Position numbers and translations under genes: made by a program. Shown here piece after piece: positions 955 through 61,069 of a DNA stretch of 64,000 nucleotides. Every line of letters begins with the position of its first letter. The stretch's first letter is position 1. Under the pieces are notes generated by a model, which was given only the letters and a program-made list of their open reading frames with translations, was not told where the DNA came from and did no database searches. The DNA is from a virus, in the IMG/VR virus record IMGVR_UViG_3300023184_008808, positions 1 through 64,000 of that record; one strand, given 5' to 3'.

Positions 955-1305
955 GGGGCCGAACTAGTTTCGATTCGAAGGCTAGAGGTTCATGTGGCAT
1001 GCAGAGGTTCATCGAGAGGCCTCTTTAAAACTCGATGCGTCAATTAAATGGCGAATCTGTTCTTGCTATGGCTGCTTAATTAAAGCTGCCTTTGGACTGC
1101 GGGGGCGATGTGAGTAGCGCTCAAAAGTCCATTGTTAAATCTCACTAGTCTTTTGTTGCCAACTAACAATTGATGAAAATTAAGTTGGAAAAGCCTGAAG
1201 GGGATTTGCCTGATGTTCCTTGATGGTGTTTTTAAACAACAGGACAAGCATGTAGAGGCAGAGCTAAAGGATTCGAAGACTGCGGGGCGGTACCGCACGG
1301 CTCCA
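955..1305 (+). ncRNA. ssrA: tmRNA, one-piece; tag (A)GESVLAMAA at 1050-1079
   Basis: 5' GGGGCCG pairs with 3' CGGCTCC-A with a G3:U pair; T-arm TGCGG/CCGCA; tag ORF after TTAAAT ends in AA-stop; ~350 nt; CCA not encoded. Confidence 0.93.
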
Positions 1306-1371
1306 TTATTATTATTTGCCAATATTCTTTTATTGTTTTATCATGGTATAAAGACTTTTGGGTCATCTTCC

Positions 1372-2592
1372 ATGAAAATATCTATATTTACTCCAACTCA
1401 TAACACCAAGTATCTTTTTCGATTGTATGAAACAATTAAAGATCAAACATATCAAAACTGGGAATGGATTATAGTTCCTAATAATGGTGCTGTTGTAAAT
1501 TTACCTCAAGATTCTCGCATTAAAATTTTTGGCACTAACGATTCATCAAACATTGGCTTTTTAAAAAGTTTTGCTTGTGCCCAAGCTACAGGTGAAGTTT
1601 ATATAGAAGTCGATCATGATGATGAGCTTTTTCCTAATGCACTTGAAGAATGTGTAAACGCATTTAAAGATCCAACGATAGATTTTGTTTACAGCAATTG
1701 TTGCGATGTTCGTGAAAATTACACTCCTCGTTTCTTTGGAGAAGCATTTGGATGGATAAATCGTCCTTGTGTGTATAAGGGCCATCAGTTGGTTGAAATG
1801 GTAGCTTTTGATCCATTGCCAGCAGCTATAAGTCGTATTTGGTATGCTCCAAATCATTTTCGAGCATGGAGAGCAAGTTTTTATAAAAAAATTGGTGGAC
1901 ATGACACAAAGCTTGATGTTTTAGATGATCAAGATATTATTTGCAGAACATATATTCACGGAAAAATGCATCATATAAATAAACCTTTATATGTATATCA
2001 CATACATGATCAGAATACTTGTTATGGTGAAAAAAATGCTCGCATTCAAGAGATGACTCTTGAATTACATGATAAATATATTTATCAAATTGTAGAAAAG
2101 TGGTGTGATATTAACAATCTGAGAAAGATAGATCTTTGTGGTGGTCATAGCAAGCCACAGGGGTATGAAAGTGTTGATCTTGATAATGGTGATATCAAAG
2201 CTGATCTTAATCAGCATTGGCCTTTTGATGATGGTTCTGTCGGATTATTTCGTGCACATGATGCTTTGGAGCATCTTAGAGATAATGTCCACACTATGAA
2301 GGAAATTTACAGATGTTTAGCTCCAAATGGTTGGTTGCTTAGTTTGACTCCTAGCACAGATGGACGAGGTGCGTTTCAAGACCCTACTCATGTATCATTT
2401 TGGAACAGCAACAGTTTTTGGTATTATACTCGTGCTGAACAGGCAAAATATATTGGAACGCCGGTTAAATTTCAAACAGTTCGCATTAAGAATTTTTTTC
2501 CAAATCCTTGGTGTGAACAGCACAACATTGTTTATGTAAAAGCTGATTTGCTTAAATTTTTTGGTCGCACTCCGGGTGCTATTGAAATTTAA
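1372..2592 (+). CDS. GT2 glycosyltransferase fused to a class I SAM methyltransferase
   Basis: ISIFTPTHN, EVDHDD; C-terminal DLCGG...ALEHL...EIYRCLAPNG...DPTH; start moved downstream of the tmRNA. Confidence 0.85.
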   Translation: MKISIFTPTHNTKYLFRLYETIKDQTYQNWEWIIVPNNGAVVNLPQDSRIKIFGTNDSSNIGFLKSFACAQATGEVYIEVDHDDELFPNALEECVNAFKDPTIDFVYSNCCDVRENYTPRFFGEAFGWINRPCVYKGHQLVEMVAFDPLPAAISRIWYAPNHFRAWRASFYKKIGGHDTKLDVLDDQDIICRTYIHGKMHHINKPLYVYHIHDQNTCYGEKNARIQEMTLELHDKYIYQIVEKWCDINNLRKIDLCGGHSKPQGYESVDLDNGDIKADLNQHWPFDDGSVGLFRAHDALEHLRDNVHTMKEIYRCLAPNGWLLSLTPSTDGRGAFQDPTHVSFWNSNSFWYYTRAEQAKYIGTPVKFQTVRIKNFFPNPWCEQHNIVYVKADLLKFFGRTPGAIEI

Positions 2593-2682
2593 AAATAAAT
2601 GGTTTATATTGCGTTTTGATCAACAACCAAATAAGCAAGGTATTTATTGGCTTTGAAATTTCAACTATTGCGAAAGAAAAAG

Positions 2683-3615: not shown

Positions 3616-3622
3616 GGTAAAT

Positions 3623-4138
3623 ATGAACGAACCAATTCTTTTGGCTAAAGAATACATTATTGTTATTGACACTGATACGCCATCTTTTGATTTTGCTCGT
3701 CCTTTGTGTGCATACTCCACTGGATATGAACATGAAGCCAATAAACTTCAAGATATGAGTGAACTTTTTTATGAAGAAACTAAATTAGAAGGAAAAAATC
3801 CTTTTGATGGATTTATTGAAGACCGTCTTGATGATGAGAATTTTTATTCGCCTTGTTCGGTGATGTTAAATAAAAATTATGGTTGTGATGGTAGTGGCAA
3901 CTATGCCATTTTAGATCAATCAAATTTTGCCAACTTCAATTATCCTGCTCCCCTGAGTGTAGGAATATTTTTTGCAAATGAACCAAACTCAGACCAACTT
4001 TCCATGATTAAAACACGAACTCAAAAGTTTTTTGAAAAAGTTTGGCCAGAAAAATCTGGTTCTAATCAAAAAGTTAAATTTGAGGGTATGCGTTTAATTA
4101 TTCAGACTAAATATGGTGAAGAAAAAGTCTTGGACTAG
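3623..4138 (+). CDS. hypothetical protein
   Basis: SD GAGGT; ORF. Confidence 0.7.
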   Translation: MNEPILLAKEYIIVIDTDTPSFDFARPLCAYSTGYEHEANKLQDMSELFYEETKLEGKNPFDGFIEDRLDDENFYSPCSVMLNKNYGCDGSGNYAILDQSNFANFNYPAPLSVGIFFANEPNSDQLSMIKTRTQKFFEKVWPEKSGSNQKVKFEGMRLIIQTKYGEEKVLD

Positions 4139-4189
4139 ATTCTTGTCTCCCAATAAGTTATTCTATTGTGATTATGGGAGCACAATATT

Positions 4190-6937: not shown

Positions 6938-7458
6938 ACGAAGAACTTATAATTGATGAAAAAAACTTTAGTCAATATTTTAGGGATTGCCGTATCAATC
7001 GCCCAGAACGAGGTGATGTTATGGCAAGGTATGTTGCTGTTGCTCAGTTAGTTGATGGGCAAATGAAGAAAAATCTTGTGGATTTGCTTTCCAATAAAGA
7101 TAAGGCTTATGCAGCTACTCAAGTAATGCGAAAACTTGGATGTGCTACTCAGAAAGATGCTATTCGAGTTTGTCGTGAAATGGCTGAAGATTTGAATAAT
7201 GGGCTATCATCAGAAGAAGTTGAAAAAAAGATTTATGAATATGAACTTGAGACTTTTTTTTATACAAAAAAAGAATATGTTCCATTAGATGATCCACACT
7301 GGTCTATTATTAGCCTTGTTAATCTTGATACATTTTTAGATGCGTCTAATCAGAAGCTTAGCATGAAGATGAGGGTCATGTCACCTGAAGAAACTCAGGA
7401 ACTTGCCCCAATCCAGTCTGATGAGACAGGAGCGGTTAAGGATGAAATTCAAGTTTAG
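6934..7458 (+). CDS. hypothetical protein
   Basis: ATGA overlap with the dnaE stop. Confidence 0.75.
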   Translation: MNEELIIDEKNFSQYFRDCRINRPERGDVMARYVAVAQLVDGQMKKNLVDLLSNKDKAYAATQVMRKLGCATQKDAIRVCREMAEDLNNGLSSEEVEKKIYEYELETFFYTKKEYVPLDDPHWSIISLVNLDTFLDASNQKLSMKMRVMSPEETQELAPIQSDETGAVKDEIQV

Positions 7459-8011
7459 TGAAAGCCAATGTGAATTGGTAGATTCGGCATATAAACCTCA
7501 GAAAGGTATGTTTGCTCAATGTAAACATTTTAAAGATGGAAGACATAAGATTGACCATTGGTGGTATTGCCGAGAAATTTTTCATAATGTACTTAAAAAT
7601 TTAAATATTTTCTTTTTTAGTCATGTTCGTGGACATGGTCAAGGTGTAGCTGCTTTTATAGCTAAAATAGAAAATATTATTGATGTGCAGCCTAGAACTG
7701 AAATGGGTCCTACGCAACAAAAGACTATTATGTGGATTAGGCCTAGTAAATGGTGGACTGATGTTGGTATGCGTAGATCTCTTTTTACCATTCTTCTTCG
7801 AGCAGGACAGGCATATAAAGTTTCTAAAGATAATTTTGATGAAGCGTCTCGTAGTTATAAATACTTAGAAGAAACTTTATATGCTTTTCACCGTTTTTTG
7901 AACGGTGGCACTAAGTATACTGGTCGTAAACGAGGATGGCATAAACAGTTCAATAAAATGAATTTAAGTAAAGAAGATGTTGATAAATTACTTATTAGCC
8001 CTCAAAAATGA
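7442..8011 (+). CDS. hypothetical protein, paralog of 34552-35211
   Basis: Shared CRE, RSLxTILxR, KDNFD and GW motifs. Confidence 0.75.
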   Translation: MKFKFSESQCELVDSAYKPQKGMFAQCKHFKDGRHKIDHWWYCREIFHNVLKNLNIFFFSHVRGHGQGVAAFIAKIENIIDVQPRTEMGPTQQKTIMWIRPSKWWTDVGMRRSLFTILLRAGQAYKVSKDNFDEASRSYKYLEETLYAFHRFLNGGTKYTGRKRGWHKQFNKMNLSKEDVDKLLISPQK

Positions 8012-8062
8012 ATAATCGATAAGTATATACATCAATATGCATTGCCATATAAAAGGAATACC

Positions 8063-12406: not shown

Positions 12407-12691
12407 ATGGCTTGTCGAGTTGAACTTCGTAATTTATCGCATAATCCAAGTTGGCATGAGCGTGAAATTGCTTTTAAAAAGATGCACACTGCGTTTAAGA
12501 AGCAGGTTGCAGAAGCAGGTATTTTACATGATTATAAAGAACGGGAGTATTATGAAAGTCCCGGTCAATCTCGTAGGAGAAAGAATAAAGAGGCTGAAAA
12601 TCAGCGCTTAAAGGAAAAGCTCCGAGAGAATTTTCCTGAGCGTAGGAAGCCTAAGAAGGACAATAAGAAGAAAAATAAAAAGGAAGCTTAA
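12407..12691 (+). CDS. rpsU: ribosomal protein bS21
   Basis: FKKQVAEAGILHDYKEREYYESPGQSRRRK. Confidence 0.88.
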   Translation: MACRVELRNLSHNPSWHEREIAFKKMHTAFKKQVAEAGILHDYKEREYYESPGQSRRRKNKEAENQRLKEKLRENFPERRKPKKDNKKKNKKEA

Positions 12692-12963: not shown

Positions 12964-13464
12964 ATGATTGATAAAAATACTGTTATTCAATTGGTTCCTG
13001 TTGACCTTTTGCCAAAAGCCATCGATGTTCCAACGGACGATCCGATGGCTATTTTCCGTCTTGCAACCAAGATGGAAAAGCTTTGTACCGAAGAAGATGG
13101 CATTGGATTGTCTGCTGTTCAAGTGGGCATTCCATGGAATTTTTTTATTTTACGCCGTGGCAGATATTATGAGTATTATCTCAATTGTGAATATACTGGT
13201 TTAGGCCCCAAGCAAAATTCTATTGAAGGGTGTCTTAGCTTAAAAAACACAGATGGTACATTGAAGCGTTTTGAATGTCAACGCTATGCTAAAATTCGTG
13301 TTAAGGGCAAGCAATTACGATTTACTAATGTTCCTGCCTTGGTCATAAGTGATTTTGATGAAGTGCAAGAAGGTTTGTATTCTGTTGTTTTTCAACATGA
13401 AATTGATCATGGCAATGACATTCTTATTTCCCAAATAGGCAAAGAAATAGAATTTATAAGGTGA
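12964..13464 (+). CDS. def: peptide deformylase
   Basis: GIGLSAVQVG, EGCLS, QHEIDH. Confidence 0.93.
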   Translation: MIDKNTVIQLVPVDLLPKAIDVPTDDPMAIFRLATKMEKLCTEEDGIGLSAVQVGIPWNFFILRRGRYYEYYLNCEYTGLGPKQNSIEGCLSLKNTDGTLKRFECQRYAKIRVKGKQLRFTNVPALVISDFDEVQEGLYSVVFQHEIDHGNDILISQIGKEIEFIR

Positions 13465-17938: not shown

Positions 17939-18505
17939 ATGAATAACCCAAATTATGGTAGGCGTTTTTCAAGGGATCAGAATTTCAAAAGAGAAGATGA
18001 ACACAGGGTTAATTATAATATTCTTGTTCCACAAGTGCGAGTAATTAGAGGTGAAGAGCAGTTGGGGATTATGCCAACTGATGTGGCTCGTCGCATGGCT
18101 ATGGACGAAGGATTAGATCTTGTCGAAGTTGTTGCTACTGCAAAACCCCCTGTTTGTCGAATTATGGATTATAGTCGTTTTAAGTATGATCAAAACATAA
18201 AGAAAAAAGAAACTGCAAAAAAGCAACGAGAGGCCCAATCTCATTTAAAAGAAATTCGTCTTCGCCCATCTATTGCCGATCACGATACTGATATGAAAAT
18301 CACTCAAGCAAAAAAATTTATTGCTGAGGGCAACAAGGTTCAATTTAATCTTGAATTTCGTGGTGCTAGAGAACTAAGCCACAAAGAACAAGGATTTAGA
18401 GTAATGCAACGAGTGGTGGAGGCTTTGGCTGAATTTGCAAAATTAGATAGAGCTCCTGCTATGGAAGGCAGAAAAATAATATGTTCATTTTCTCCTAAGG
18501 CTTGA
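17939..18505 (+). CDS. infC: translation initiation factor IF-3
   Basis: VRVI.GEEQLGIM, GLDLVEV, PPVCRIMDY, KEIRLRP, FRG. Confidence 0.95.
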   Translation: MNNPNYGRRFSRDQNFKREDEHRVNYNILVPQVRVIRGEEQLGIMPTDVARRMAMDEGLDLVEVVATAKPPVCRIMDYSRFKYDQNIKKKETAKKQREAQSHLKEIRLRPSIADHDTDMKITQAKKFIAEGNKVQFNLEFRGARELSHKEQGFRVMQRVVEALAEFAKLDRAPAMEGRKIICSFSPKA

Positions 18506-19738: not shown

Positions 19739-20059
19739 ATGGATTATTCAATAACGCAACAAGAAATTCTTGCTTTTGCCAAACAAATTTACACGGCTGG
19801 TTTTGGTGGATATCTTGATTTGTGTGACAATTGTTGCAGTAAAATGGTCGAAGAGTTTTTGGCAAATAAGAAAACTATAACGCCTCATACTACTTTAACA
19901 GTGCCTCAAAATAGTCTGCAGTCAGTTAGTATACCGAATATGTCGAATGCTTGGCAAAATATTCAGGTTTACAGTGCAGACTCAACATATGCGGCAAATA
20001 GCGTTTTGGTGACCGGTGGTCATCCGCAACAAGAGCAACAAGAGCAACAAGAAAGGTAG
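19739..20059 (+). CDS. hypothetical protein with QQE repeats at the C-terminus
   Basis: SD GAGGT. Confidence 0.65.
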   Translation: MDYSITQQEILAFAKQIYTAGFGGYLDLCDNCCSKMVEEFLANKKTITPHTTLTVPQNSLQSVSIPNMSNAWQNIQVYSADSTYAANSVLVTGGHPQQEQQEQQER

Positions 20060-20063
20060 ATCA

Positions 20064-20441
20064 ATGGCTAAGAGCAAAATTTTGACAACAACTTCTGATG
20101 TTTTTTCCCCTGAAATTCCAATTCTGGGACAGGGCAGTAAAACTCCAAAAATCAAGAATGTAAAGCCGTGTGGTTCGCAAGTTTTGGTTGAAATTCTTAC
20201 TCCTCAAGAAATGATGGGTACGGATTTGACCGTCACTAATAAAATTGATCTTAAAGTGCCTTTGCAAGGTTATGTTAGGGCAGTTGGTCCTTCTTTTAAG
20301 TCTGAAGATTATGGCTATAAAATTGGTGACAGGGTTCTTATCTCTGGAACTGGTGTCATGGCTCCTTTGTACGATGATTGTCATCGAGATCGATTTTTTA
20401 TGGAGCCCCATGCAATCAAGAGCGTTTTGGTTGAAGAATGA
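20064..20441 (+). CDS. groES: co-chaperonin GroES-like protein
   Basis: VKPCGSQVLVE, GYVRAVGP, KIGDRVLI. Confidence 0.8.
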   Translation: MAKSKILTTTSDVFSPEIPILGQGSKTPKIKNVKPCGSQVLVEILTPQEMMGTDLTVTNKIDLKVPLQGYVRAVGPSFKSEDYGYKIGDRVLISGTGVMAPLYDDCHRDRFFMEPHAIKSVLVEE

Positions 20442-21508
20442 ATAAATGCTATGAAGTCTTAGGAGTTCCTAAGACTGCCAGTCAAGAAGATATTCAAAAA
20501 GCCTATCGTCAAAAGGCTAAAGAGCATCACCCAGATAGAAATCCGGGTGATGCTGACGCACAGCGTCGATTTCGTGAAATACAAGAAGCTTACGACACTC
20601 TTAGCGACCCGATCAAAAGAAATCAATATGATCGTGTTGGCAATTCCATGCATTTTCGCAGTCATGGATCAGGATTTGATCCTACCATGAATCCATTTGC
20701 GGACATGATGAGTGAGATGTTTAAAAATCCAACTTTTCAAGGTCGCAATCTTCAAATGCGACTTGATGTTTCTTTTGAAGAAGCTTTTACAGGTTGTGTA
20801 AAAGAAGTAAACATAAAAGTTAAAAATCGTTGTGTAACTTGTAACGGTCATGGCCAAACGAGCACAGAATCTTGTTCTTTGTGTAGTGGGCAAGGATTTG
20901 TCAATGTAAATAATGCTCCTTTTGAGATTAGAACTGGTTGTCCAAACTGCAATTCCACAGGAAAAATAAATTTAAAACCTTGCTCTGACTGCAATAGCAC
21001 GGGCAATCTTCCCGGTTATCGTGAAAAGAAAATAAATATTCAAATTCCTTCTGGAATTGATAACGGTGCAGTTATTCGAATCAAAGCAGAAGGAGAAGAA
21101 TCTGTCCGAGGTGGTGGAAGACCGGGAGATTTACTTGTTCATATTGTAGTGCCTGAACATCCAATCTATCGTCGTCAAGGTGCTGATTTAATTGTTGATA
21201 TACCTGTATCATATGCAGAATTGGCATTAGGTTCAGAAATATCTTTACCTTATTTTCAAGGTGAAAAATTATCACTCAAAGTTCCTGCAGGTACTCAAAG
21301 CCATAGTAAACTAAAATTGACAGGAAAAGGTGGAGTGTTACCTAATGGTCTTATTGGCGATTTGATTGTTACTTTGAAGGTTGAAACCGTAAAAAATCCT
21401 GATGAAAATTATTTAAAAATACTTGAACAATTAGCCACTTTAGAAAAAAATCATGTTGATTCAAGAAGAGCAGCATGGCAGAAAAAAATAGATTCAACAA
21501 CTACATAA
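20438..21508 (+). CDS. dnaJ: chaperone DnaJ
   Basis: HPD J-domain, four CxxCxxxG repeats, C-terminal domains. Confidence 0.95.
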   Translation: MNKCYEVLGVPKTASQEDIQKAYRQKAKEHHPDRNPGDADAQRRFREIQEAYDTLSDPIKRNQYDRVGNSMHFRSHGSGFDPTMNPFADMMSEMFKNPTFQGRNLQMRLDVSFEEAFTGCVKEVNIKVKNRCVTCNGHGQTSTESCSLCSGQGFVNVNNAPFEIRTGCPNCNSTGKINLKPCSDCNSTGNLPGYREKKINIQIPSGIDNGAVIRIKAEGEESVRGGGRPGDLLVHIVVPEHPIYRRQGADLIVDIPVSYAELALGSEISLPYFQGEKLSLKVPAGTQSHSKLKLTGKGGVLPNGLIGDLIVTLKVETVKNPDENYLKILEQLATLEKNHVDSRRAAWQKKIDSTTT

Positions 21509-24802: not shown

Positions 24803-26362
24803 ATGGATAGTATTCTTAATTTTCCAAATGGATCAAAAACTGGCCCCTTAGAAGTAAATGTTACATCAGGTTTAGTTGGAATTTTATCTGGAAACATATC
24901 AATTTATACGGCAAGTGGTGCAGTAAGTCAGGGAAATCCTTTGCCAGTTGATATTGGTGGTGGCACCGTAAATATCAATGTCGCATCAGGTACAAATTTA
25001 AATGTTTCTGTTACATCAGGACAATTTTCAATTTTGTCTGGCAAAGTAAGTGTTTCTTCTGGAAACACTTCTCTTTATACATCTAGTGGAACAATTGGTC
25101 AGACAAATCCTCTTCCAGTTTCAATTTCATCAGGAGCATTTTCAAACAATATTGTTCCAATTAGTTTTGCAACAGGAACAACAGATGCGTTTGGAAGACT
25201 GAGAGTAAGCAATCCATTCACTCTTTTTGATAGTCAACATCGCTATCAAATTAGCGATAAGTGGAATTATCAAACTACAACTGGTGGTTCAACTTTCTAT
25301 GATGTAAACGGTAGTCTAGTCAACTTGAACACAAGTTTGACTTCTGGGTCTCAAGTAATTGCTGAGACAAAAAGAGTAATGCCTTATCAGCCCGGAAAAT
25401 CATTGCTTATTTACAGTACATTTACAATGTCGTCTGCTCAAAACAATTTGAGACAAAGAATAGGTTATTTTGGAGAACAGAACGGAATTTATTTTGAAGT
25501 AGATGGAACATCAATCAATTTTGTTAAAAGAAGTTATGTTAATGGAAGTGTTGTAGAAACTAAAGCTACAAGACTTTCAGGAGATGGTTGGAATGTAGAT
25601 AACTTAGATGGAAATGGGCCTAGCGGTTATAATATTTCAGATTATAGCAGTTCTTTTATTTTCTTTATTGAGATTGAGTGGCTTGGCGTTGGAGATGTTC
25701 GTGTTGGGTTTATTCTTAATGGAGCTTATGTTCCATGTCATGTTTTCAAGCATACTCCAGCAGGTGATAGCCCAATAAGTGGAACATATATGACAACTGC
25801 TTGTTTGCCTTTGAGAGCAGAAATTACAAACAAAGGCCCAATTACTTCTTCAGGTAATTTGAAGCAAATTTGCAACAGTGTTATTTCAGAAGGTGGATAT
25901 GAAGGATTTAGCAGGCGTTATAATGCCGATTTGGGAACAAGTCCTAAAAACCTTGTGAATGCAGATCAATTGTATCCAATTGTTTCTATTCGTCTTGCTT
26001 CAGGAAGATTGGATTCAATTGTTGTTCCATCAAATTTGAATGCAATTGTCACAAGTAATCAAGATATACAATATAGGATTGTTTTAAATCCAACTTTAGT
26101 TGGTGCTTCTTGGCAGACACATTATCAAGGAAATGTTCAATATGATACTTCTGCTACATCTTTAGCGAGTGGTAGTGGAACTAATGTTGTTGGTGGTTAT
26201 GTTAACAAACAAGGTTCTCTTGATATTACTAGCATAAATCAATTCAATTTTCAAATTGGAAGACTTCTTGATGGAACAAGTGAGATTTTGACTATTGCCA
26301 TGGCAGGAACATCAGCAAACACGAAAGTTTTGGCTGATCTATCATGGTTTGAGATTATTTGA
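24803..26362 (+). CDS. virion structural protein (Ser/Gly/Thr-rich)
   Basis: DAFGRLRVSNPFTLFDS, YQPGKS, EWLGVG; TATAAATA upstream. Confidence 0.75.
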   Translation: MDSILNFPNGSKTGPLEVNVTSGLVGILSGNISIYTASGAVSQGNPLPVDIGGGTVNINVASGTNLNVSVTSGQFSILSGKVSVSSGNTSLYTSSGTIGQTNPLPVSISSGAFSNNIVPISFATGTTDAFGRLRVSNPFTLFDSQHRYQISDKWNYQTTTGGSTFYDVNGSLVNLNTSLTSGSQVIAETKRVMPYQPGKSLLIYSTFTMSSAQNNLRQRIGYFGEQNGIYFEVDGTSINFVKRSYVNGSVVETKATRLSGDGWNVDNLDGNGPSGYNISDYSSSFIFFIEIEWLGVGDVRVGFILNGAYVPCHVFKHTPAGDSPISGTYMTTACLPLRAEITNKGPITSSGNLKQICNSVISEGGYEGFSRRYNADLGTSPKNLVNADQLYPIVSIRLASGRLDSIVVPSNLNAIVTSNQDIQYRIVLNPTLVGASWQTHYQGNVQYDTSATSLASGSGTNVVGGYVNKQGSLDITSINQFNFQIGRLLDGTSEILTIAMAGTSANTKVLADLSWFEII

Positions 26363-29965: not shown

Positions 29966-30991
29966 ATGAGCCAAATGCGTAGCAGTTCCGTAAAATACCG
30001 CAACTTAAATAGTTCTAGGCGTTTTGGTGTTGAAATTGAAATGGGTCATGAGATTAAGAAGAAACAGGTTCAAGTCCTTCTCAACAAACATTCACTTTAT
30101 CCTACAGTTATAACAAGATATGCTCTTAGTTCTAATAATTTATATTGGCATGTTAAAGATGATGCTACTTGCGGGATTCATGGAAGATATGGCCCAAAAG
30201 GTGTAGAAATAGCTTCTTATATTGGATCTGGCATAGGTGATATTGATCATATTTCTAATACGGCTGAAAAACTAGCTCAATCAGGATGTCGAGTTAATGA
30301 CAATTGTGGTTTGCACATTCACGCCGAGGTGCTTGATTTAACTCCTGCTCAAATTGGGGTTGTTATGGCACATTGGATTAAATTTGAACATTTATTAAGT
30401 TTGGCTTTGCCTGTTCGTCGTAGAAACAATGAATTTTGTCGTTACACTATTCATCCTTGTGCTTCTAGTGCTGATTACTGTGGTAAAATTGTACGACAAG
30501 AAACTTATGATGCAATTTCTTTTTGCAATATGATTATGCCTCAAAATATTGCAATTTATGATAATCATGATCGTAGGATAAATCTGAATCTTGTTAATTT
30601 GGCTCGTAGTTTGTTTCACAAAAACTCTTATCGAAGAACCATGGAACTTCGTTGGCCAGAAGGAACTCTTGATGCCAGAGATATTCGTTGTTGGCTACAT
30701 CTTTTTTTAAGTTTTATTGAAAACACAAAGAATCGTTCTATGCCAAAGAATTTGTATTCTTGCGATCTTGATGAAGGATTGTCTTATCTTGGAATGAATC
30801 ATGAACGAGGCAAATTTATTATTTTAAGTCAGGGTCTTTTTGAAACAAAAACTTGGTTTCTTGAAAGAATTTTAAAATTTTACAAAGAAAATGTGGACTT
30901 TTCTCATAATCCAATTTATGCTGCATCGGTTGCTATTAGCACTCAAAAGGCTTTACGAAAGATGTGGCATCCTGTTCGCAAATACAATTGA
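29966..30991 (+). CDS. amidoligase (COOH-NH2 ligase) family protein
   Basis: RFGVEIE, GVEIAS, CGLHIH, TMELR. Confidence 0.85.
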   Translation: MSQMRSSSVKYRNLNSSRRFGVEIEMGHEIKKKQVQVLLNKHSLYPTVITRYALSSNNLYWHVKDDATCGIHGRYGPKGVEIASYIGSGIGDIDHISNTAEKLAQSGCRVNDNCGLHIHAEVLDLTPAQIGVVMAHWIKFEHLLSLALPVRRRNNEFCRYTIHPCASSADYCGKIVRQETYDAISFCNMIMPQNIAIYDNHDRRINLNLVNLARSLFHKNSYRRTMELRWPEGTLDARDIRCWLHLFLSFIENTKNRSMPKNLYSCDLDEGLSYLGMNHERGKFIILSQGLFETKTWFLERILKFYKENVDFSHNPIYAASVAISTQKALRKMWHPVRKYN

Positions 30992-31066: not shown

Positions 31067-31600
31067 ATGACTACTGCAAATTACCATAATCTTGTATTGA
31101 ATAATGTTTCTATGGCCAAAAAAATGGCTCGATCTCGCAAGAGATCTACTTATAATATAACTTTTGATGAATTGGAATCAGCTGCAATGCTTGGCCTTGT
31201 TCAAGCAGCCAATTCTTATGGAGATCAAGAAAAAGATCTTTTTCCTCGTTATGCTAAATTTCGCATTTATGGTGCTATGAATGATTATCTTAGGGAACTT
31301 GGTTGGGGACCTAGAAATAAATGGTTGAATCGAGATTTTAATTTTTGTATTGAAGAAATACCTGAGGTTATTGTTGATCGTGATACTAATGATTTTTTTG
31401 ACATATTGTTAGAATGTTTGCCTGTCAACCATCGAGTCATGATGAAAAGATACTATATTGATGGTGACAAAATCACTAAAATTTCTAATGATTTTAAACT
31501 TGCAGAATCAAGAATTTCACAAATACTTACAAATTCTAGATTAAAGCTGCAAGAGGTATGGGAAGATAGGCGTTATGAATTGTGGAAATTGGTAGCTTAA
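31067..31600 (+). CDS. sigma-70 family factor (FliA/WhiG-like)
   Basis: DELESAAMLGLVQAA, YAKFRIYGAMNDYLR, ESRISQI. Confidence 0.88.
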   Translation: MTTANYHNLVLNNVSMAKKMARSRKRSTYNITFDELESAAMLGLVQAANSYGDQEKDLFPRYAKFRIYGAMNDYLRELGWGPRNKWLNRDFNFCIEEIPEVIVDRDTNDFFDILLECLPVNHRVMMKRYYIDGDKITKISNDFKLAESRISQILTNSRLKLQEVWEDRRYELWKLVA

Positions 31601-34551: not shown

Positions 34552-35211
34552 ATGAAAATTGAATTTTTACCTGATAGGAATATAACGCTTGTTTATTGTT
34601 CTCCCCCTATTGGTAACTTTGGTCTTGAACATTTTGATGGTCACATTACAGTTTGGGATCATTGTCGTGAACAATTTGCTGTTAAATATACAGAAAAAAT
34701 TGCTGGTTTTTACATGTCTCACAATCAGGGCGTGGGAAATAATATTGCTCGTTTTTTAACGAAATTTGAGCGTATTGTAAAGACTAGTGGTCGTTATAAA
34801 AATATGAAATATAGTAAATTTGCCAAAACAAATAATCCTTTGATTATTTACATTGAACCAAGTGATTTTTGGCGGAACTGTTATTTCAAGCGTTCTCTTC
34901 TTACAATTCTTGTTCGTTGTGGAATGAATTATGATTTTAAAAAAGACAATTTTGATGACGCTCTTTTTAGTGTAGATTATAAAGAATCAACCTATCTTAA
35001 AGAAACCAAGCCTGCTGTTTTGCGATTTATGTTTGGATTTACACACTATAACGGTGTTGTTCCTCCATTTCTTGAAACAACTGTTTTAAAACATGGTTGG
35101 CGTGAAGAGTTTCAAAAACTTGATGAAACAGCTATTCGCAATCGTTTAATTTTGCCTCCCGGAATTAAAAAGCAACCTAATATTGTTGGTGCAGAATCGC
35201 TTTGGGTTTAG
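34552..35211 (+). CDS. hypothetical protein, paralog of 7442-8011
   Basis: HCRE, KRSLLTILVRCG, KDNFDD, HGW. Confidence 0.75.
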   Translation: MKIEFLPDRNITLVYCSPPIGNFGLEHFDGHITVWDHCREQFAVKYTEKIAGFYMSHNQGVGNNIARFLTKFERIVKTSGRYKNMKYSKFAKTNNPLIIYIEPSDFWRNCYFKRSLLTILVRCGMNYDFKKDNFDDALFSVDYKESTYLKETKPAVLRFMFGFTHYNGVVPPFLETTVLKHGWREEFQKLDETAIRNRLILPPGIKKQPNIVGAESLWV

Positions 35212-36605: not shown

Positions 36606-37181
36606 ATGCAGTCTTTTTCTTTAGTTATAATCCCTGTTGCTCCGAAAGCACAAGATTATATGCATCTTGCTGAAAAGTTTGCTTATATATTTTGCTTGCC
36701 ACAGGATCGAAGGAATATCAAAGATTCTGAATTTTATTCATTGGCTTGTGTATGGCTATGTCGTGCAGTAAAAAAATACACTCATAGTAAGGGTGATTTT
36801 GAAAGTTATGCTGGAATGACTATTAGAAATGGTTTGATAAGTCACATCAGATATTTAAATCGTAAAAGGCGTAATAAAAAATCTGCTCATCTTGCAGATT
36901 TTCAATTAGATAATTTAGTTGATCACAGTAAAAGTGAACTTGATCAGCATTTAGATGAAGAAGTTAATACTAGACTTGTGGATTTTGTTTTAAAAACCCA
37001 TAAGAAAGAAACAGATCAAGATAGGGATGATAAAGAGTTGATGTTAGATATTTATTATCGTGGTAAAACTGTTTTTGATCTCGCAAAGGAACATTCATGC
37101 ACTCGCATGACTATTTACAACAGGATTCAAAGAATTGTCAATAAGATTCGCCAATGGTATTCAGTAGCAGGCAAAAATTGA
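36606..37181 (+). CDS. sigma-70 family factor
   Basis: LCRAVKKY...FESYA..IRN; region 4 LAKEHSCTRMTIYNRI. Confidence 0.8.
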   Translation: MQSFSLVIIPVAPKAQDYMHLAEKFAYIFCLPQDRRNIKDSEFYSLACVWLCRAVKKYTHSKGDFESYAGMTIRNGLISHIRYLNRKRRNKKSAHLADFQLDNLVDHSKSELDQHLDEEVNTRLVDFVLKTHKKETDQDRDDKELMLDIYYRGKTVFDLAKEHSCTRMTIYNRIQRIVNKIRQWYSVAGKN

Positions 37182-39789: not shown

Positions 39790-39860
39790 GCCCTTTTAGT
39801 TAAATGGTATAACGGCTGACTTGTAATCAGCGGTTGCCAGTTCGATTCTGGCATAGGGCT
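39790..39860 (+). tRNA. tRNA-Thr(UGU)
   Basis: Anticodon arm GCTGA-CTTGTAA-TCAGC; T-arm GCCAG-TTCGATT-CTGGC; one U-U mismatch in the acceptor stem; CCA not encoded. Confidence 0.9.
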
Positions 39861-39976: not shown

Positions 39977-40288
39977 ATGAATACTGCAACAATTGAAGAA
40001 ACTGAAACAATAGTAAAAAAACAACCACCTTACAATCTTATTCTTTTAAATGATGATGATCATACGGAAAGTTATGTAATTAGTATGTGCATGAAGCTTT
40101 TTGGATATTCCAAAACAAAAGGTAAAAATATTGCCCTAGAGGTTCATAATACTGGTCGTTCAATCATATACACTGGATCATTTGAAGTTGTGGAATTAAA
40201 ACAAGAGCAAGTTCATTCTTTTGGTCGAGATATATTTGTCATGCGTTGTAAGGGAAGCATGACAGCAGTTATTGAAAAAGTTGTTTAA
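39977..40288 (+). CDS. clpS: Clp protease adaptor ClpS
   Basis: PPYNLILLNDDDHT, EVHNTGR. Confidence 0.92.
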   Translation: MNTATIEETETIVKKQPPYNLILLNDDDHTESYVISMCMKLFGYSKTKGKNIALEVHNTGRSIIYTGSFEVVELKQEQVHSFGRDIFVMRCKGSMTAVIEKVV

Positions 40289-43160: not shown

Positions 43161-43913
43161 TTGAACAGACCTTTGCTTATATTGAGCATGCCAAATTGTG
43201 GTTCAGACTGGCTTGTATCTACTATTCAGAAAAGCAATCTAGATTTAATTTATAATAGAGAATTTTTCAATCCAGCCGTTAATATTCAACACAGAGATGT
43301 TATTAAGCAAGCATTTGGTAGTGAGTATGTTGGCAATTATAAAAATATAGCACATTTTGATTATGAATCTTGTGACAAGGTTTTTAAACAAACTTGGGAA
43401 AAGACAAATTTTAATTTTACAAAAGAAAATTATTCAGCGTTTAAGATTCCTTATTTTTTTGATAAATTCTTTTGTTTTGCTTTTATTCGAGATGTTAGAC
43501 AATCTCTTCCGGGATCTCGTACCATACAAGTTTCTTCTTGGTATGATGCAATTTATCAATCTATGTTGTGTAATTTAGATAGTTTGTCCGATTGGATTAA
43601 AGATGCCATAAAAAAATTCACAAGTGAAAATCGTTCAACTTATGAAGAAAATGTGTTTGCTTTTTTGTTGTATCAAAAAATATTAGTTGAAATGTGCAAA
43701 GTTCATGGAATCACCGTTATAGAGTACAAAAATCTCATGCAATTTGATCGTGATAAATTAACTGACTATTTAAAGATTTTTGAAAATTATCTCAATGTTA
43801 AATCATGGGTTAATCATATAGTTAGCAGTCGAAAAAATCATAGACGGAATTTTAATTCAACTAATGGTGAATGGATTTTACAAAAATTTTCTGATTTAAA
43901 GTGTGGAACATGA
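43161..43913 (+). CDS. sulfotransferase-like P-loop protein
   Basis: LILSMPNCGSDWL...EFFNP, IEYKNL. Confidence 0.55.
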   Translation: MNRPLLILSMPNCGSDWLVSTIQKSNLDLIYNREFFNPAVNIQHRDVIKQAFGSEYVGNYKNIAHFDYESCDKVFKQTWEKTNFNFTKENYSAFKIPYFFDKFFCFAFIRDVRQSLPGSRTIQVSSWYDAIYQSMLCNLDSLSDWIKDAIKKFTSENRSTYEENVFAFLLYQKILVEMCKVHGITVIEYKNLMQFDRDKLTDYLKIFENYLNVKSWVNHIVSSRKNHRRNFNSTNGEWILQKFSDLKCGT

Positions 43914-44314
43914 GCGTAAAGCAAGTTATTGTGTGGCGACATGATTTAAATTGTCGAATGGGTAAAAAAATGGCACAGGCTGGACATGCAGCTTTGGCTG
44001 ATTTTTTTTCTAGCTTTCAAAATCATGTTGATGCTTATGGAAATGTTTCATTTCAAATGACCGCAGAGCAATTTGAATGGTATCTTAATAATCGAAAAAA
44101 GATAGTTCTTAGGGTTGATAGTGAATCAGATTTATTGCTTCTAAAGCAACGAGGCGAAGAAATGGGGCTTCCTGTTTATTTGATCACAGACGATGGTTTG
44201 ACCGAATGGGAAAATCCTACCAATACTTGTTTAGCTATTGGGCCTGCCAATGAAGCTGCAATAGATTTATTGACTGGAGAAAACGGACCCTTAGGAAAAT
44301 TAAAACTATTATAG
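43910..44314 (+). CDS. pth2: peptidyl-tRNA hydrolase, Pth2 family
   Basis: KQVIV.R.DL, GKKMAQAGHA, KKIVL, D.GLTE, TCLAIGP. Confidence 0.92.
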   Translation: MSVKQVIVWRHDLNCRMGKKMAQAGHAALADFFSSFQNHVDAYGNVSFQMTAEQFEWYLNNRKKIVLRVDSESDLLLLKQRGEEMGLPVYLITDDGLTEWENPTNTCLAIGPANEAAIDLLTGENGPLGKLKLL

Positions 44315-49278: not shown

Positions 49279-49393
49279 GTTTCTAGTTGATCTTGATTTT
49301 GTTTTATTTTTAGATTAGGGTTTGCTATCTTTTGGTTTGCTTGACCAAAATTGCTTTTTTCATTTTAAATCATCAAGCGAAAGGATTTGTAAG

Positions 49394-49591
49394 ATGTTGC
49401 TTTTAAAGCGCAGAATCGATCAAAGCATTATGGTGGGGGATATGAAAGTTACCGTTATAAAGATAACTCAGAACGAAGTCATGTTGGGAATTGATGGTGA
49501 TAGACGAGTAATTGTTCATCGTAAAGAAATTTACGATAAAATTCAAAAGGAAAACAATGTCAAAACCGAGAAGTTGCCCGCACTGTCATGA
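49394..49591 (+). CDS. csrA: carbon storage regulator CsrA (copy 1)
   Basis: MLLLKRRIDQSIMVG...V.LGI...VHRKEIY. Confidence 0.88.
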   Translation: MLLLKRRIDQSIMVGDMKVTVIKITQNEVMLGIDGDRRVIVHRKEIYDKIQKENNVKTEKLPALS

Positions 49592-52571: not shown

Positions 52572-52793
52572 TCATGCTGTTTCTGCTGAAATTTGCCCAA
52601 TAGGAGCACGAGGGTCAATCTCGATGTTATTTCCTTCAAGTTCTGAACGCAACACAGTGATCTTTTTATCAGCTTCAATGCCTATTCTGACCTTGTTGCG
52701 ATTATCAATACGGACCACGGTGATTTTGATATCTTCCATGCCGGGGCCTTTAAGAATAATCGTTTCATCCTTTTTTCGACTTAGTACGAGCAT
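52572..52793 (-). CDS. csrA: carbon storage regulator CsrA (copy 2)
   Basis: MLVLSRKKDETI...KVRIGIEA...VLRSEL. Confidence 0.92.
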   Translation of the reverse strand: MLVLSRKKDETIILKGPGMEDIKITVVRIDNRNKVRIGIEADKKITVLRSELEGNNIEIDPRAPIGQISAETA

Positions 52794-53021
52794 TTTACTT
52801 CCTTTCGTGCCTGATTCCTTGAGCCAAGCTGTACTCACTATCTAAGGAGTTAGTTATCGATTTTTTTTATTGATATGGACAGTATTTTTATTTTTTGCTA
52901 TACAATCAAAGTAAATAGGCGTTTAATAATATTGATGACTCATCGGGAGAGTTATCAAATGTGTTGTTAGTATTTGTCCGTGACTAACAGCATTTCAGGT
53001 ACGGACGGGAATAGGTGCAAT

Positions 53022-53890: not shown

Positions 53891-53912
53891 TTTTAACCTA
53901 AAACAATTAAAT

Positions 53913-53940: not shown

Positions 53941-54029
53941 ATTTTTAGGCACTATTTAAATATTGGCGTGTATTTATTTTAGATTTTTTGGTATAGTACT
54001 TTCGTTCAACATGTCTTTTTGAGGTTAGC

Positions 54030-55301
54030 ATGAGTAAAAAGAAAAGCCCAGTCTGTGATTACTGTGGCAAACCCAGTTCTCAGGTTGGCCTATTAGTAGA
54101 AAGTCCTGTCTCTGATAAAGAACAAAATGGACGACCTGCTGGTGGTAAGGTTTATATTTGTGGCAGTTGTGTTGATATATGCCAAACTATGGTTGTTCAA
54201 AAGATGAAATCTCCTTCTTTAACATTTATTTCTAATCATATTCCTTCTCCCAAGCAAATTGTTGCTTATCTTGATAAGTCTATCATTGGACAAGATAGTG
54301 CTAAAAAAGCTTTGGCTGTAGCCATTACAAATCATTACAAAAGACTTCAAGATAATAATTTAGATCGGGATGATGATCTTTTTGCTGATGTTACTCTTGA
54401 AAAAAGCAATATTCTTCTCATCGGTCCAACTGGTTGTGGCAAAACATCTCTTGCTCGCACATTAGCACACATATTAAAAGTTCCATTTGCAATTGGTGAT
54501 GCAACCACATTGACAGAGGCGGGTTATGTTGGCGAAGATGTAGAAAATCTTGTTTTAAAATTATTACGAGAGGCAGATTTTAAAGTTGAATTGGCTCAAA
54601 CTGGAATTATTTTTTTAGATGAGTTAGACAAAATTGGTAAAACTTCACAAAATGTTTCGATTACTAGAGATGTAAGCGGTGAAGGAGTTCAACAAGCTTT
54701 GTTGAAAATGCTTGAAGGCACAACTTGTAATGTTCCACCGGGAGGGGGCAGGAAACATCCCGAACAACAATACATTCAAATTGATACAACAAACATTTTA
54801 TTTATTTGTGGCGGTGCTTTTGTTGGTCTCGATGAGATTATTCGTCGTCGTATTGGCAAAGCCACCATGGGTTTTAATCCCTCTGCAAAAAAAGATGAAA
54901 ACGAATGGATTTTGGAATATGTAACCGAGGACGATCTTATTGAGTATGGTCTTATTCCTGAAATTATTGGTCGTCTTCCTGTTATTACTCCTTTGAAGGG
55001 TCTTGATGAAGAAGCGATGATTAAGATATTGACTGAACCAAAAGATGCTTTAGTCAAACAATATCAGAAAATGTGTCATAAAGATAATGTTAAACTAATG
55101 TTTACAAACGAGGCATTGTCTTTGATTGCTAAAAAGGCTATAGATAAAGGCACTGGAGCTCGTGGTCTCAGAAGCGTCATGGAAAGTTTCATGATAGAAA
55201 TTATGTACCATTTATCAGATCATGATGGAGAAAGCGTTGTAGTAACAAAAGAAGTCGTTGAAGGTGGAACAGCTATTTTTACAAAAAATAGAGCAGCTTA
55301 A
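54030..55301 (+). CDS. clpX: ATP-dependent Clp protease ATPase ClpX
   Basis: C4 zinc domain, [28 protein letters not shown] loop, GARGLR. Confidence 0.97.
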
Positions 55302-55315
55302 CTCTGGTATCTTAA

Positions 55316-55966: not shown

Positions 55967-55971
55967 GAAAC

Positions 55972-56782: not shown

Positions 56783-56889
56783 TGTATGAACTAGGTTCTT
56801 TTGTATTTTTTATAATAGCCGTAGGTTTATCATGTCTCACAATTATGTGTCTGACTGATATGGCCTCTTATGGCAGGAGAGACGAATGA
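56782..56889 (+). CDS. small TM protein
   Basis: Manual call; overlaps flanking stop and start codons. Confidence 0.45.
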   Translation: MYELGSFVFFIIAVGLSCLTIMCLTDMASYGRRDE

Positions 56890-57317
56890 CTATGCTTTTG
56901 TTTGTTTATGGTACATTAAAAAACGGTCATGTACGCAATAATGCGTTAGATCAATGTCGTTATTTGGGAACAGCAATAACTGTTTCAAAATATGGAATGT
57001 ACCATTATGGTGGATTCCCAGCAGTAATTGATGAATCTTGCCCCAGTGCTCGTTCAGGAATGTCTTTAGATACCAAAATTCATGGCGAATTATGGGAAGT
57101 AGGACACGATGATCTTATAAGTTTAGATCGCATAGAAGGTGTAGATTCTAATTTATTTAATCGTAAACTTATTGATCTTGAAAGCGTTACTTTATTTCGT
57201 CATCCTCTTTCTAAAGAAGTTTGGTCTTTGTTAGAGAACAAAAAAGCAGAAGCATATCTTTTTATGCAAGATTTGCGTGGATCTGCTCAGCTTAATGGTT
57301 TTTGGCCAAGAAAATAA
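56886..57317 (+). CDS. gamma-glutamylcyclotransferase (AIG2-like)
   Basis: FVYGTLK, GELWEV, LDRIEG. Confidence 0.9.
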   Translation: MTMLLFVYGTLKNGHVRNNALDQCRYLGTAITVSKYGMYHYGGFPAVIDESCPSARSGMSLDTKIHGELWEVGHDDLISLDRIEGVDSNLFNRKLIDLESVTLFRHPLSKEVWSLLENKKAEAYLFMQDLRGSAQLNGFWPRK

Positions 57318-57337
57318 TTATTATGTAGAGGGGTGAT

Positions 57338-57706: not shown

Positions 57707-57713
57707 GGTTTCT

Positions 57714-58856: not shown

Positions 58857-58944
58857 TTTTAAATATTTTTTAAAATCTTGCATGTTGTTTGGGTGCATCA
58901 AAATGAGGGTATATACTCCTTATAAGTAATGAGGAGTATATTTA

Positions 58945-59895
58945 ATGAACCATGATTTAAATCAGCGTGCTCAAAAGCTTGTTCAGACAACTATTCGTTG
59001 TTTTCATCATTCTTCTTTTGATGATGTTAAAGAACACAAGTCTATTACAGCTGAAATTCCAGAATTTGAAGCGTTTCAAAAAGGTATAAGTAAAATTCTT
59101 AAAATTCGTTCTGGTAAGGTCAATCCTGAAATGCTTCCTTGTTATGAAAGTCCTCTTTTAAATTTCGCACAAGAGCAACATCTTTTTCGAAAAATGAATT
59201 ATTACAAGTATAGAGCTAAAACTATTATTGCTTCTATCAATTATGATGATCCTTGTTATCAAAAAATTAAAAACGCTGAAAATTTTATTGAAAAGTCTAT
59301 CGAGGTACGCAATCAAATTGCACAATCAAACTTTAGACTTGCAACTCAGATTATGAAACATCGCATGAGTTTTAACAAAGAATTATATCAAAGTGATTTA
59401 ATGCTTTCAGATGCTTATTTTGATGTTCTAAAAGCTGTTGATTACTTTAATTGGACTTTAGGATATCGCTTTAGCACATACGCTACATGGGTTATAAAAA
59501 AGAATTATTTTAGGGATGCTAAATTAAAAGCAAATCTTTCAGAAAAATTCAACAGTCTTGACGATCAAAATGCAGATATGATTGAAGGTCGTAGTTCTGG
59601 CATAGAAGAGGAAAAGGCTCACATTACTCGTCAAAAGCTTATCTTTAAACTGATTGGAGTAATGGTTAGGGAAAATCTTGGAACTGATCGTGTGCGACAA
59701 GCTTTTGTTTTAGAAAACTATTACGGCGTTAATGGTCGTGATAGAAAGACTCTTGAGCAAATTAGCGAAGAGATTGGCGTCACCAAGGAAAGAGTTAGAC
59801 AATTAAAAGAAAAAGGTCTCGAATGGATTAGAGAACGAGTGACGCAACTAGATCTTGATTATGATAATGATGCCCCAGAGGAAAGCTTGTTTTAG
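58945..59895 (+). CDS. RpoD/SigA-like sigma-70 factor
   Basis: PLL..EQHLFRKMNY, NFRL, KAVDYFN..GYRFSTYATW, TLEQI...GVTKERVRQ. Confidence 0.92.
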   Translation: MNHDLNQRAQKLVQTTIRCFHHSSFDDVKEHKSITAEIPEFEAFQKGISKILKIRSGKVNPEMLPCYESPLLNFAQEQHLFRKMNYYKYRAKTIIASINYDDPCYQKIKNAENFIEKSIEVRNQIAQSNFRLATQIMKHRMSFNKELYQSDLMLSDAYFDVLKAVDYFNWTLGYRFSTYATWVIKKNYFRDAKLKANLSEKFNSLDDQNADMIEGRSSGIEEEKAHITRQKLIFKLIGVMVRENLGTDRVRQAFVLENYYGVNGRDRKTLEQISEEIGVTKERVRQLKEKGLEWIRERVTQLDLDYDNDAPEESLF

Positions 59896-59932
59896 ACTTT
59901 AAAAAGTCAACAGCATTGATATAATAGCCCCT

Positions 59933-61069
59933 ATGTTCACTTTAAAAGAAGCCTACGAAGCTCTTGTTGACAGAACTGAATTTGCTGTTAAGCAAACTAA
60001 GGATACTGTTTGTTTTGATTATATAATTGTTCTTTCTGACTCTTTTTTGCCAGAAGACAATAGTGAAGAGGCTAAGCGAAAAGCATGGATTCGTCGCAAT
60101 ATGCGAGGAGTTACTTTTTGCTTGCATACGCAAGAAATATTATCATTACCTTTGCACAAGTTTTATAACTTGAATCAAAATCCTCAGTCAGCTTTTCACT
60201 TATACCAAAATCAACAAGCTACTATTTATGAAAAATTAGATGGTAGCATGATTCATTTTTATTTGCTTAAAGGTGATTTAGTAGCATCAACATGTCGCTC
60301 TATAGATACAGTTCAAGCCAAAGAAGCTTTGTCTATAGCACAAAACAATACTAAGCTTAAAAATGAAATTTTAGAGTCTATACAAAATGGATTGACTCCT
60401 ATATTTGAATTTGTATCTCCTAAAAATCAAATTGTTGTTCAGTATAATCAACAACGACTTGTTTATCTTATTTCTAGAAATCGTAAAACTGGTAAATATA
60501 TTTTTGAAGATAAGTATTCTGATAAGGCCAAGGTTTTCAATATTGCTTTTCCTTATATTTTTGATTTTTTAAACATAAAAGAATTTGAAGGATATGTTTG
60601 TCATTTTGAAAATGGCGAAATTCTTAAGTTAAAAACTCCTTGGTATGTTGAACGACACCGTGCTGTAGATTTTTTGATTAAGCCTCTTTATAAGCTTTAT
60701 GAAGTTGCTCTCGATGGCTATATGGATGATATTATTGGTTTAGCTGCCGATTCTTATAAACATAAATTAACTTTAATTCATGATGAAGTTCAAAAAGATA
60801 TATTGAACCATAAAAAAGAAATACAAAACAATTTTGATAATTTAATTATTTCATTGGGCACACAACATCAGTCTTTAAATGACAGGCTACAAGATAAAGC
60901 TCACAGAAAAAAGTTTGTTCAGTGTGTAAAGGATTCTAAGCAAGACATATCAATCATGATGTGTCTATATCAAGGGCAAGAATTTGATAAAATACTGAAG
61001 AAAAAGCTTCTTGAAAATTATACTGCACAATATAAAGTAAAAATTTGGGAAGACAATAATTTTAAATAA
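59933..61069 (+). CDS. T4 Rnl1-like RNA ligase
   Basis: RGVTF, KFYN, EKLDGS, FEF...NQIVV.Y, EGYV, KLKTPWY. Confidence 0.9.
   Translation: MFTLKEAYEALVDRTEFAVKQTKDTVCFDYIIVLSDSFLPEDNSEEAKRKAWIRRNMRGVTFCLHTQEILSLPLHKFYNLNQNPQSAFHLYQNQQATIYEKLDGSMIHFYLLKGDLVASTCRSIDTVQAKEALSIAQNNTKLKNEILESIQNGLTPIFEFVSPKNQIVVQYNQQRLVYLISRNRKTGKYIFEDKYSDKAKVFNIAFPYIFDFLNIKEFEGYVCHFENGEILKLKTPWYVERHRAVDFLIKPLYKLYEVALDGYMDDIIGLAADSYKHKLTLIHDEVQKDILNHKKEIQNNFDNLIISLGTQHQSLNDRLQDKAHRKKFVQCVKDSKQDISIMMCLYQGQEFDKILKKKLLENYTAQYKVKIWEDNNFK

Follow-up and report, generated by a model that had tools for sequence, protein, structure and literature searches.

We have analysed a stretch of viral DNA of 64,000 bases (hereafter the window), corresponding to positions 1-64,000 of the IMG/VR record IMGVR_UViG_3300023184_008808, whose entire contig measures 90,159 bases. 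The window encodes small partners of the translation, folding and proteolysis machines: a transfer-messenger RNA (tmRNA), ClpX, ClpS, Pth2, peptide deformylase (PDF), IF3, bS21, DnaJ, a GroES-like protein, a tRNA-Thr and a T4 Rnl1-type RNA ligase. We propose, with a probability of about 0.72, that they form a colinear helper set, at least partly of host-phylum origin, which serves the host core machines of a phage of Planctomycetota. All eleven genes had been listed in an earlier note made from the sequence alone, and Rfam, Pfam and NCBIfam searches established that they are real, the GroES-like one through its orthologues and a fold match.

Under this proposal, each helper product would assist a large host machine as the partner that is cheap, limits the rate or confers specificity. 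The lineage set would comprise the tmRNA; a block with bS21, PDF, IF3 and the coupled GroES-like and DnaJ genes; the tRNA-Thr with ClpS, Pth2 and a CsrA-ClpX pair; and, in some members, Rnl1. We infer both the partnerships with host proteins and the benefit to the phage.

A colinear gene set in a lineage of huge phages

The contig is a piece of a huge phage. It encodes a virion structural protein (24803..26362, + strand; phrog_1645, E 1e-102), which marks it as viral and shares 40-43% identity with structural proteins of cyanophages and HMO-2011. The GC content of the contig is 34.8%, compared with 47-71% in Planctomycetota loci, and one strand holds nearly all of its genes. It is also colinear with phage records that measure 340-570 kb and include two with terminal repeats. 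The GC content, the structural gene and the synteny ruled out cellular contamination and disposed of the chromosome fragment that the earlier note had allowed for. A Planctomycetota cellular fragment or a chimaeric assembly, with the genes being ordinary housekeeping copies, would fit the Planctomycetota homologues that are nearest for several genes. We consider it extremely improbable in view of the above features, of the solitary clpX, with a ClpP-family gene absent throughout the 90 kb, and of the separate clade formed by the viral ClpX proteins. According to CheckV, this single IMG/VR virus contig is 21% complete, and it is most likely about one fifth of a ~430-kb freshwater phage. Lake and freshwater metagenomes of several studies contain near-identical DNA, and the public runs listed as containing it include no RNA run. 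Collagen-like Gly-X-Y repeat genes lie at both contig ends (window 1-855, - strand, and contig positions 89197-90159), and probably explain the assembly break there.

Judged by gene phylogeny only, the host most likely belongs to the phylum Planctomycetota, for which few viruses are known. The cues are the ClpX clade, a Blastopirellula-like ClpS, tmRNA tags ending in ...AMAA and a DUF1559 gene. The latter encodes a protein with a prepilin-type N-terminal methylation motif (N_methyl) and lies beyond the window (contig positions 64297-65400, or L220:297-1400, - strand; 152 bits). The DUF1559 family is greatly expanded in Planctomycetota. All five candidate host genomes encode ClpS and Clp_N ATPases, and one of the five encodes Pth2.

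We have compared the contig with 18 relatives chosen by ClpX, searching their whole records; eight are at least 90% complete, and two of the 18 have terminal repeats. SmpB, ClpP, Cpn60 and HSP70 were found nowhere in the 90,159 bases of the contig, which extends to its full length the absence of SmpB, ClpP, DnaK and GroEL that the earlier note had reported for the window. The relatives encode neither Cpn60 (GroEL, 0/18) nor HSP70 (DnaK, 0/18), and canonical ClpP is encoded in none of the 18. DnaJ, by contrast with these cores, is present in 17, followed by IF3 (15/18), PDF (14/18), bS21 (12-13/18, adjoining PDF), Pth2 (12/18) and full-length tmRNA (9/18). Divergent ClpP-family proteins occur in eight relatives, ClpS in four, Clp_N in four and SmpB in three (G002, G003 and G010). 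The near-complete G008, G012 and G013 have tmRNA without SmpB, the complete G003 has SmpB without tmRNA, and both occur together only in G010. For DnaJ/DnaK, GroES/GroEL and ClpS/ClpA, having the small partner without its large core characterises the lineage, and for tmRNA/SmpB this is mostly so. Across these 18 genomes, giant phages retain the small partners (DnaJ, GroES-like, ClpS, tmRNA, ClpX) and never DnaK or GroEL.

The gene order is conserved as well. The tmRNA is followed, ~11 kb on, by bS21, a small ribbon-helix-helix (RHH) gene and PDF, and then by IF3, the GroES-like/DnaJ pair, ClpS, Pth2 and ClpX. Even where the ClpX of a relative shares only 55% identity, the ~10-kb block from bS21 to dnaJ is retained. 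The set is an old, vertically inherited colinear block and not a recent or ad hoc collection, so the description of the toolkit as dispersed in the earlier note had to be abandoned.

The circuits could instead be self-contained, with the missing four fifths of the genome encoding SmpB and a phage ClpP-type peptidase for tmRNA-SmpB and ClpX-ClpP pairs. This would be in line with the three relatives that encode SmpB, with the smpB of G002 lying ~95 kb beyond clpX, i.e., past the end of the present contig, and with the open reading frames (ORFs) of ~200 amino acids of the ClpP family, carrying Ser and His motifs, in 8/18 relatives. Yet only one of the eight relatives with a completeness of at least 90% encodes SmpB, and G008, G012, G013 and G003 uncouple it from tmRNA. 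The ClpP-like proteins reach only 65-81 bits and have a head maturation protease as best PHROG match; their genes sit outside head-gene neighbourhoods. Moreover, the ~180 kb of G001 and this contig combined contain no SmpB or ClpP-family genes, and all 18 relatives lack GroEL and DnaK. Taken together, we regard self-contained circuits as unlikely.

Several points nevertheless weigh against a helper set that serves host machines. With 79% of the phage genome unseen, absence of SmpB, ClpP, GroEL and DnaK is not claimable for the whole phage and core-gene absence is not readable from the contig. The relatives were picked through ClpX, so that the gene frequencies are conditional on ClpX. SmpB is encoded in three relatives, including G002, the nearest large one, and the divergent ClpP-family peptidases of 8/18 relatives are potential ClpX partners, or else prohead proteases. 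In ClpS, the gatekeeper residue (E. coli M40) is E31, with Val in four relatives. The suggestion of the earlier note that the helpers plug into host cores stands in part: it agrees with relatives devoid of GroEL, DnaK and canonical ClpP, and does not extend to those with SmpB or ClpP-like peptidases. The search for core genes that it had called for was similarly divided, GroEL and DnaK being absent from all relatives and SmpB and ClpP-like genes turning up in 3/18 and 8/18, respectively.

The idea of host-core recruitment is already published (PMC7824862; PMC7162821), and our observations do not overturn current views. Iyer, Anantharaman, Krishnan, Burroughs and Aravind (2021; PMC7824862) described jumbo-phage HSP10 without HSP60, ClpS, DnaJ-domain co-chaperones, ClpX/ClpA and BCS1-like AAA+ proteins, and proposed the recruitment of host HSP60, ClpAP and HSP70. 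The lineage studied here differs from those jumbo phages in being uncultured and tied to Planctomycetota, in having a ClpX with a zinc-finger insertion, and in a DnaJ whose occurrence is near-universal (17/18) instead of sporadic and whose gene is coupled to a GroES-like one. Al-Shayeb et al. (2020; PMC7162821) reported IF3, bS21, peptide deformylase, tmRNA and SmpB in genomes >200 kb, which they read as redirecting host translation; their account omits ClpX, ClpS, DnaJ, GroES and Pth2, as well as the tendency to carry either tmRNA or SmpB, seldom the two together. What we add is a tie to Planctomycetota, a near-universal pair of coupled GroES-like and DnaJ genes without DnaK or GroEL in any relative, the tmRNA-or-SmpB pattern and the ClpX insertion. 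Three pairings of a phage protein with a host protein are open to testing, namely ClpX with ClpP, DnaJ with DnaK and the GroES-like protein with GroEL.

The tmRNA, its tag and the ClpX unfoldase

The tmRNA gene (ssrA; 955-1308, + strand) matched Rfam RF00023 over the full length of the model (positions 1-374), scoring 79 bits where the gathering score is 47; ARAGORN missed it with default and relaxed settings. In its acceptor stem, the 5' GGGGCCG pairs with the 3' CGGCUCC, generating a G3:U70 pair, and CCA is not encoded. Alanyl-tRNA synthetase requires the G3:U70 pair. The tag frame (GGC..GCU GCU UAA) gives GESVLAMAA-stop, and it is kept in the tmRNAs of nine relatives although the nucleotides vary. 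The full length of the RNA, its own tag and its same position in relatives ruled out that it is an attP remnant of a host ssrA gene.

The phage tags (GESVLAMAA, GETVYAMAA, DEVSYAMAA, GEVSYAMAA, DETVHALAA, DETVLSLAA, VEAPLQMAA, GETPAYRMAA, VEPELRMAA and GKNSYAMAA) were compared with those of Planctomycetota (GNTNYAMAA, ANNNYAMAA, AENHLAMAA, ..AQLAMAA, AEDNLALAA, ANTQYALAA and AENNTLVLAA). The two groups differ upstream only, and the C-terminal degron is of the host type (...[LM]AA), which indicates that the phage tag feeds the same proteolytic route and defines no new one. The altered tag specificity entertained in the earlier note gains no support from the LAMAA end of GESVLAMAA, which matches Planctomycetota tags. 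In the cell, the tmRNA would be charged by the host alanyl-tRNA synthetase, would use host SmpB in most relatives and would add the host-type ...[LM]AA degron.

Three relatives contain RNAs of ~140 nucleotides whose matches span the entire tmRNA model with 47-55 bits (L090:1501-1640 in G007; L091:1501-1635, - strand, in G011; and G010:C1:325378-325520). They have the G3:U70 stem and a T-arm, and both pseudoknots and a recognisable tag frame are missing. They resemble a lone tRNA-like domain and are possible candidates for tag-less mini-tmRNAs. The listed start of a glycosyltransferase/methyltransferase fusion ORF (window 1213-2592) overlaps the 3' end of the window tmRNA, and the true start is probably ATG 1372 (MKISIF...).

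ClpX (54030-55301, + strand) scored well above the equivalog cut-offs of NF003745 (559 bits vs 359) and TIGR00382 (544 vs 371). The protein has a C4 zinc finger, the GYVG pore-1, pore-2 and RKH loops, the Walker A and B motifs and a docking loop reading MGF. The earlier note had recognised the GYVG, pore-2 and RKH loops, and these proved to be conserved across the phage clade, which keeps pore-1, pore-2, RKH, the Walker motifs and an [IM]GF ClpP-docking loop throughout. The conserved docking loop argues for a ClpP partner. With its pore loops and MGF loop kept, ClpX would dock on a ClpP ring, most likely that of the host.

The phylogenies suggested in the earlier note were run, with viral ClpX forming its own clade that joins Planctomycetota ClpX. 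FastTree placed 29 viral ClpX proteins in one clade. In the IQ-TREE analysis, 24 viral ClpX proteins formed one clade (Shimodaira-Hasegawa-like approximate likelihood ratio test, SH-aLRT, 99), which was joined to Planctomycetota ClpX against all other phyla (100). The closest cellular ClpX proteins are those of Planctomycetota, with 53-57% identity over the full length and matching pore-1, pore-2, RKH and IGF-type loops. The best GenBank match is LR756511.1, a 595-kb uncultured phage record (56% identity). Bacillus phage G (PMC12484599) is a giant phage with ClpP-ClpX and tmRNA; its ClpX is 50% identical to the one described here, and tmRNA is common to both. However, phage G encodes ClpP adjoining ClpX and its tag lacks the AA end, whereas clpX is solitary in the present lineage.

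Two differences set the phage apart from Planctomycetota: the contig has no ClpP-family gene, and its ClpX carries an insertion of ~12 residues (V27-G38, EQNGRPAG; window 54108-54143) in the zinc-binding domain, where it separates the two Cys pairs. The insertion is kept in, and limited to, the phage clade; it is absent from the ClpX of Planctomycetota and other cellular organisms (alignment A2) and is missing in the relatives G004 and G012. The four Cys are invariant in the same alignment, and the predicted local distance difference test (pLDDT) values of the insertion region are 80-88 in the AlphaFold model. The zinc-binding domain of ClpX is the binding site for adaptors and some substrates, and the insertion might alter substrate choice. 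The upstream residues of the tags showed no clear correlation with the insertion, G004 and G012 having similar tags without it.

Upstream of clpX lies a divergently oriented gene for a CsrA-family regulator (52572-52838, - strand; PF02599, 55 bits), the most conserved gene around clpX, with 65-90% identity across the clade, exceeding the conservation of ClpX itself. A second CsrA-family protein is encoded at 49322-49591 (+ strand; PF02599, 55 bits). This adjacency of a very conserved CsrA and a clpX with zinc-finger insertion is the context for another reading, which we hold to be very unlikely: the phage-clade ClpX would be a retargeted unfoldase that docks on host ClpP and picks a phage-defined set of substrates, possibly proteins of host defence or housekeeping, or else chains to which the phage tmRNA has added its tag, which departs from host tags only upstream of the common ...AMAA degron. 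Were this the case, the lineage would rewire host proteolysis instead of merely boosting it.

ClpX could also act without any peptidase, as a stand-alone unfoldase/translocase for virion assembly or for remodelling of replication complexes. ClpX alone is known to remodel MuA and other complexes, and the failure to find canonical ClpP in the relatives would suit such a role. A translocase or assembly function was proposed for phage ClpX and ClpA by Iyer et al. (2021; PMC7824862). The [IM]GF docking loop, present in every member of the phage clade, would be hard to explain without a ClpP partner, and we find a peptidase-free ClpX quite unlikely.

Co-chaperones, ClpS and translation factors

The GroES/Cpn10-like co-chaperonin (20016-20441, + strand) is divergent and is the weakest gene call of the set, its Pfam Cpn10 score (20.6-20.7 bits) being just below the gathering score of 21.1. 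A sequence search of the PDB gave no useful match. Among its orthologues in the relatives (alignment A1), 9/12 match Cpn10 at E <=0.01, the best with 2e-6. We have also used an AlphaFold (AF2) model of the protein (pLDDT 76) for a Foldseek search. The best 34 PDB matches were GroES/Cpn10 or T4 gp31 (probability 0.99-1.00), with the exception of one chain of a ClpP complex at rank 33. The identity assigned to this protein is backed by the orthologues and by the fold match of the predicted model. The gene likely starts at ATG 20064.

The gene overlaps the start of dnaJ by 4 bases, and it is found directly upstream of dnaJ in 11/15 relatives examined. The product of the latter is a type I DnaJ (20438-21508, + strand), with PF00226, PF00684 and PF01556 above their cut-offs; TIGR02349 gave 305 bits, below the equivalog cut-off of 377. 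It comprises a J domain with HPD, a Gly/Phe region, four CxxCxGxG repeats and the C-terminal domain. Since the HPD motif is intact, this DnaJ is predicted to drive host DnaK, and the GroES-like protein may cap host GroEL in the manner of T4 gp31. T4 gp31 is the classic GroES-fold phage co-chaperonin that caps host GroEL, and its chains 1g31 and 2cgt are among the fold matches. In contrast to gp31, the protein described here keeps weak Cpn10 similarity and has an N-terminal extension and translational coupling to dnaJ.

ClpS (39977-40288, + strand; PF02617, 67 bits vs 23) is of the Planctomycetota-type subfamily, and all NCBIfam equivalog models stayed below their cut-offs. When aligned to E. 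coli ClpS, its N25, D26 and H57 are the equivalents of N34, D35 and H66, and, as we read the alignment, the ClpA-contacting acidic and basic residues are kept too. The protein shares 48% identity, and an unusual C-terminal tail (CKGSMxAxIE), with a ClpS paralogue of Blastopirellula. ClpS would bring N-degron substrates to host ClpA/ClpC. An ATE_N match at contig positions 67824-68516 was under the cut-off (20 bits) and was not accepted as an N-degron-making transferase. Some relatives have small stand-alone Clp_N proteins of 170-318 amino acids with no AAA module (G007:C1:209600-209959, G014:C1:212122-212511, G008:C1:133750-133902 and G012:C1:145014-145169). There is no overlap of Clp_N and ClpS in the relatives: the four with Clp_N lack ClpS, and the four with ClpS lack a Clp_N ATPase.

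The genes for bS21 and PDF lie close together. The bS21 protein has a basic C-terminal tail (12407-12691, + strand; TIGR00030, 43.1 bits vs a cut-off of 28.95). PDF has a short C-terminus (12964-13464, + strand; PF01327, 61 bits vs 22.8) and, with all NCBIfam equivalog models below cut-offs, contains the three catalytic motifs (GIGLSAVQ, EGCLS and QHEIDH), which a PDB alignment supports. IF3 (infC; 17939-18505, + strand) has both IF3_N and IF3_C and scored 169 bits with TIGR00168 (cut-off 60). Pth2 is of the archaeal/eukaryotic type (43901-44314, + strand; PF01981, 92.6 bits vs 23; TIGR00283, 82.5 vs 82), and an alignment to archaeal Pth2 (PDB 1wn2) supports its catalytic motifs. The tRNA-Thr (UGU) gene (39790-39860, + strand) was called in agreement by ARAGORN and Rfam. 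ACA accounts for 36% of Thr codons in the phage, compared with 1-18% in most Planctomycetota loci sampled, which fits codon compensation, the role that phage tRNAs usually have. The RNA ligase (59933-61069, + strand; PF09511, 62 bits vs 28) scored 104 bits with TIGR02308, under its cut-off of 242; its KLDGS aligns with KEDGS of T4 Rnl1 (PDB 2c5u), the KxDG nucleotidyl-transferase motif. For an AT-rich genome inside a host of higher GC content, IF3, bS21, PDF, Pth2, tRNA-Thr (UGU) and Rnl1 could together sustain initiation and maturation and keep up the tRNA pool.

The same genes might instead be a kit against host defences, in which ribosome rescue and tRNA repair follow the action of translation-arrest defences (anticodon nucleases, mRNA interferases) and ClpX or ClpS degrades defence proteins. 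Such a kit would accord with the role of T4 Rnl1, which rejoins tRNA after cleavage by PrrC, with the action of tmRNA and Pth2 on complexes that have stalled or dropped off, and with a possible shift in the substrate choice of ClpX through its zinc-finger insertion. Nonetheless, no healing kinase/phosphatase partner of the ligase was identified, and Rnl1 lies within 10 kb of clpX in only one of the 14 relatives compared. In addition, the most conserved members (DnaJ, IF3, PDF and bS21) are general translation and folding factors. We thus consider a counter-defence kit rather improbable.

Other genes of the contig

Most neighbouring ORFs had no match in PHROGs and Pfam, and further members of the toolkit were consequently not found. 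Downstream of clpX, a conserved neighbour encodes a GGACT (gamma-glutamyl cyclotransferase-like) protein (56886-57317), and an Amidoligase_2 family protein is encoded at window 29966-30991; the two could belong to a system that modifies peptides or metabolites. The ORFs 7403-8011 and 34552-35211, which have no Pfam match, are paralogues with a common motif (RSLFTILLRAGQAYKVSKDNFDEA and RSLLTILVRCGMNYDFKKDNFDDA). Four weak sigma-70-like factors are encoded at window 31067-31600, 36606-37181 and 58945-59895 and at contig positions 85978-86982 (- strand); they match region 2, region 4 or both, and most of these matches lie close to the Pfam cut-offs or under them. Besides ClpX, the window holds two further classical AAA ATPases (PF00004; 2647-3615 and 45582-46760), the second of which looks BCS1-like from a reading of its sequence.

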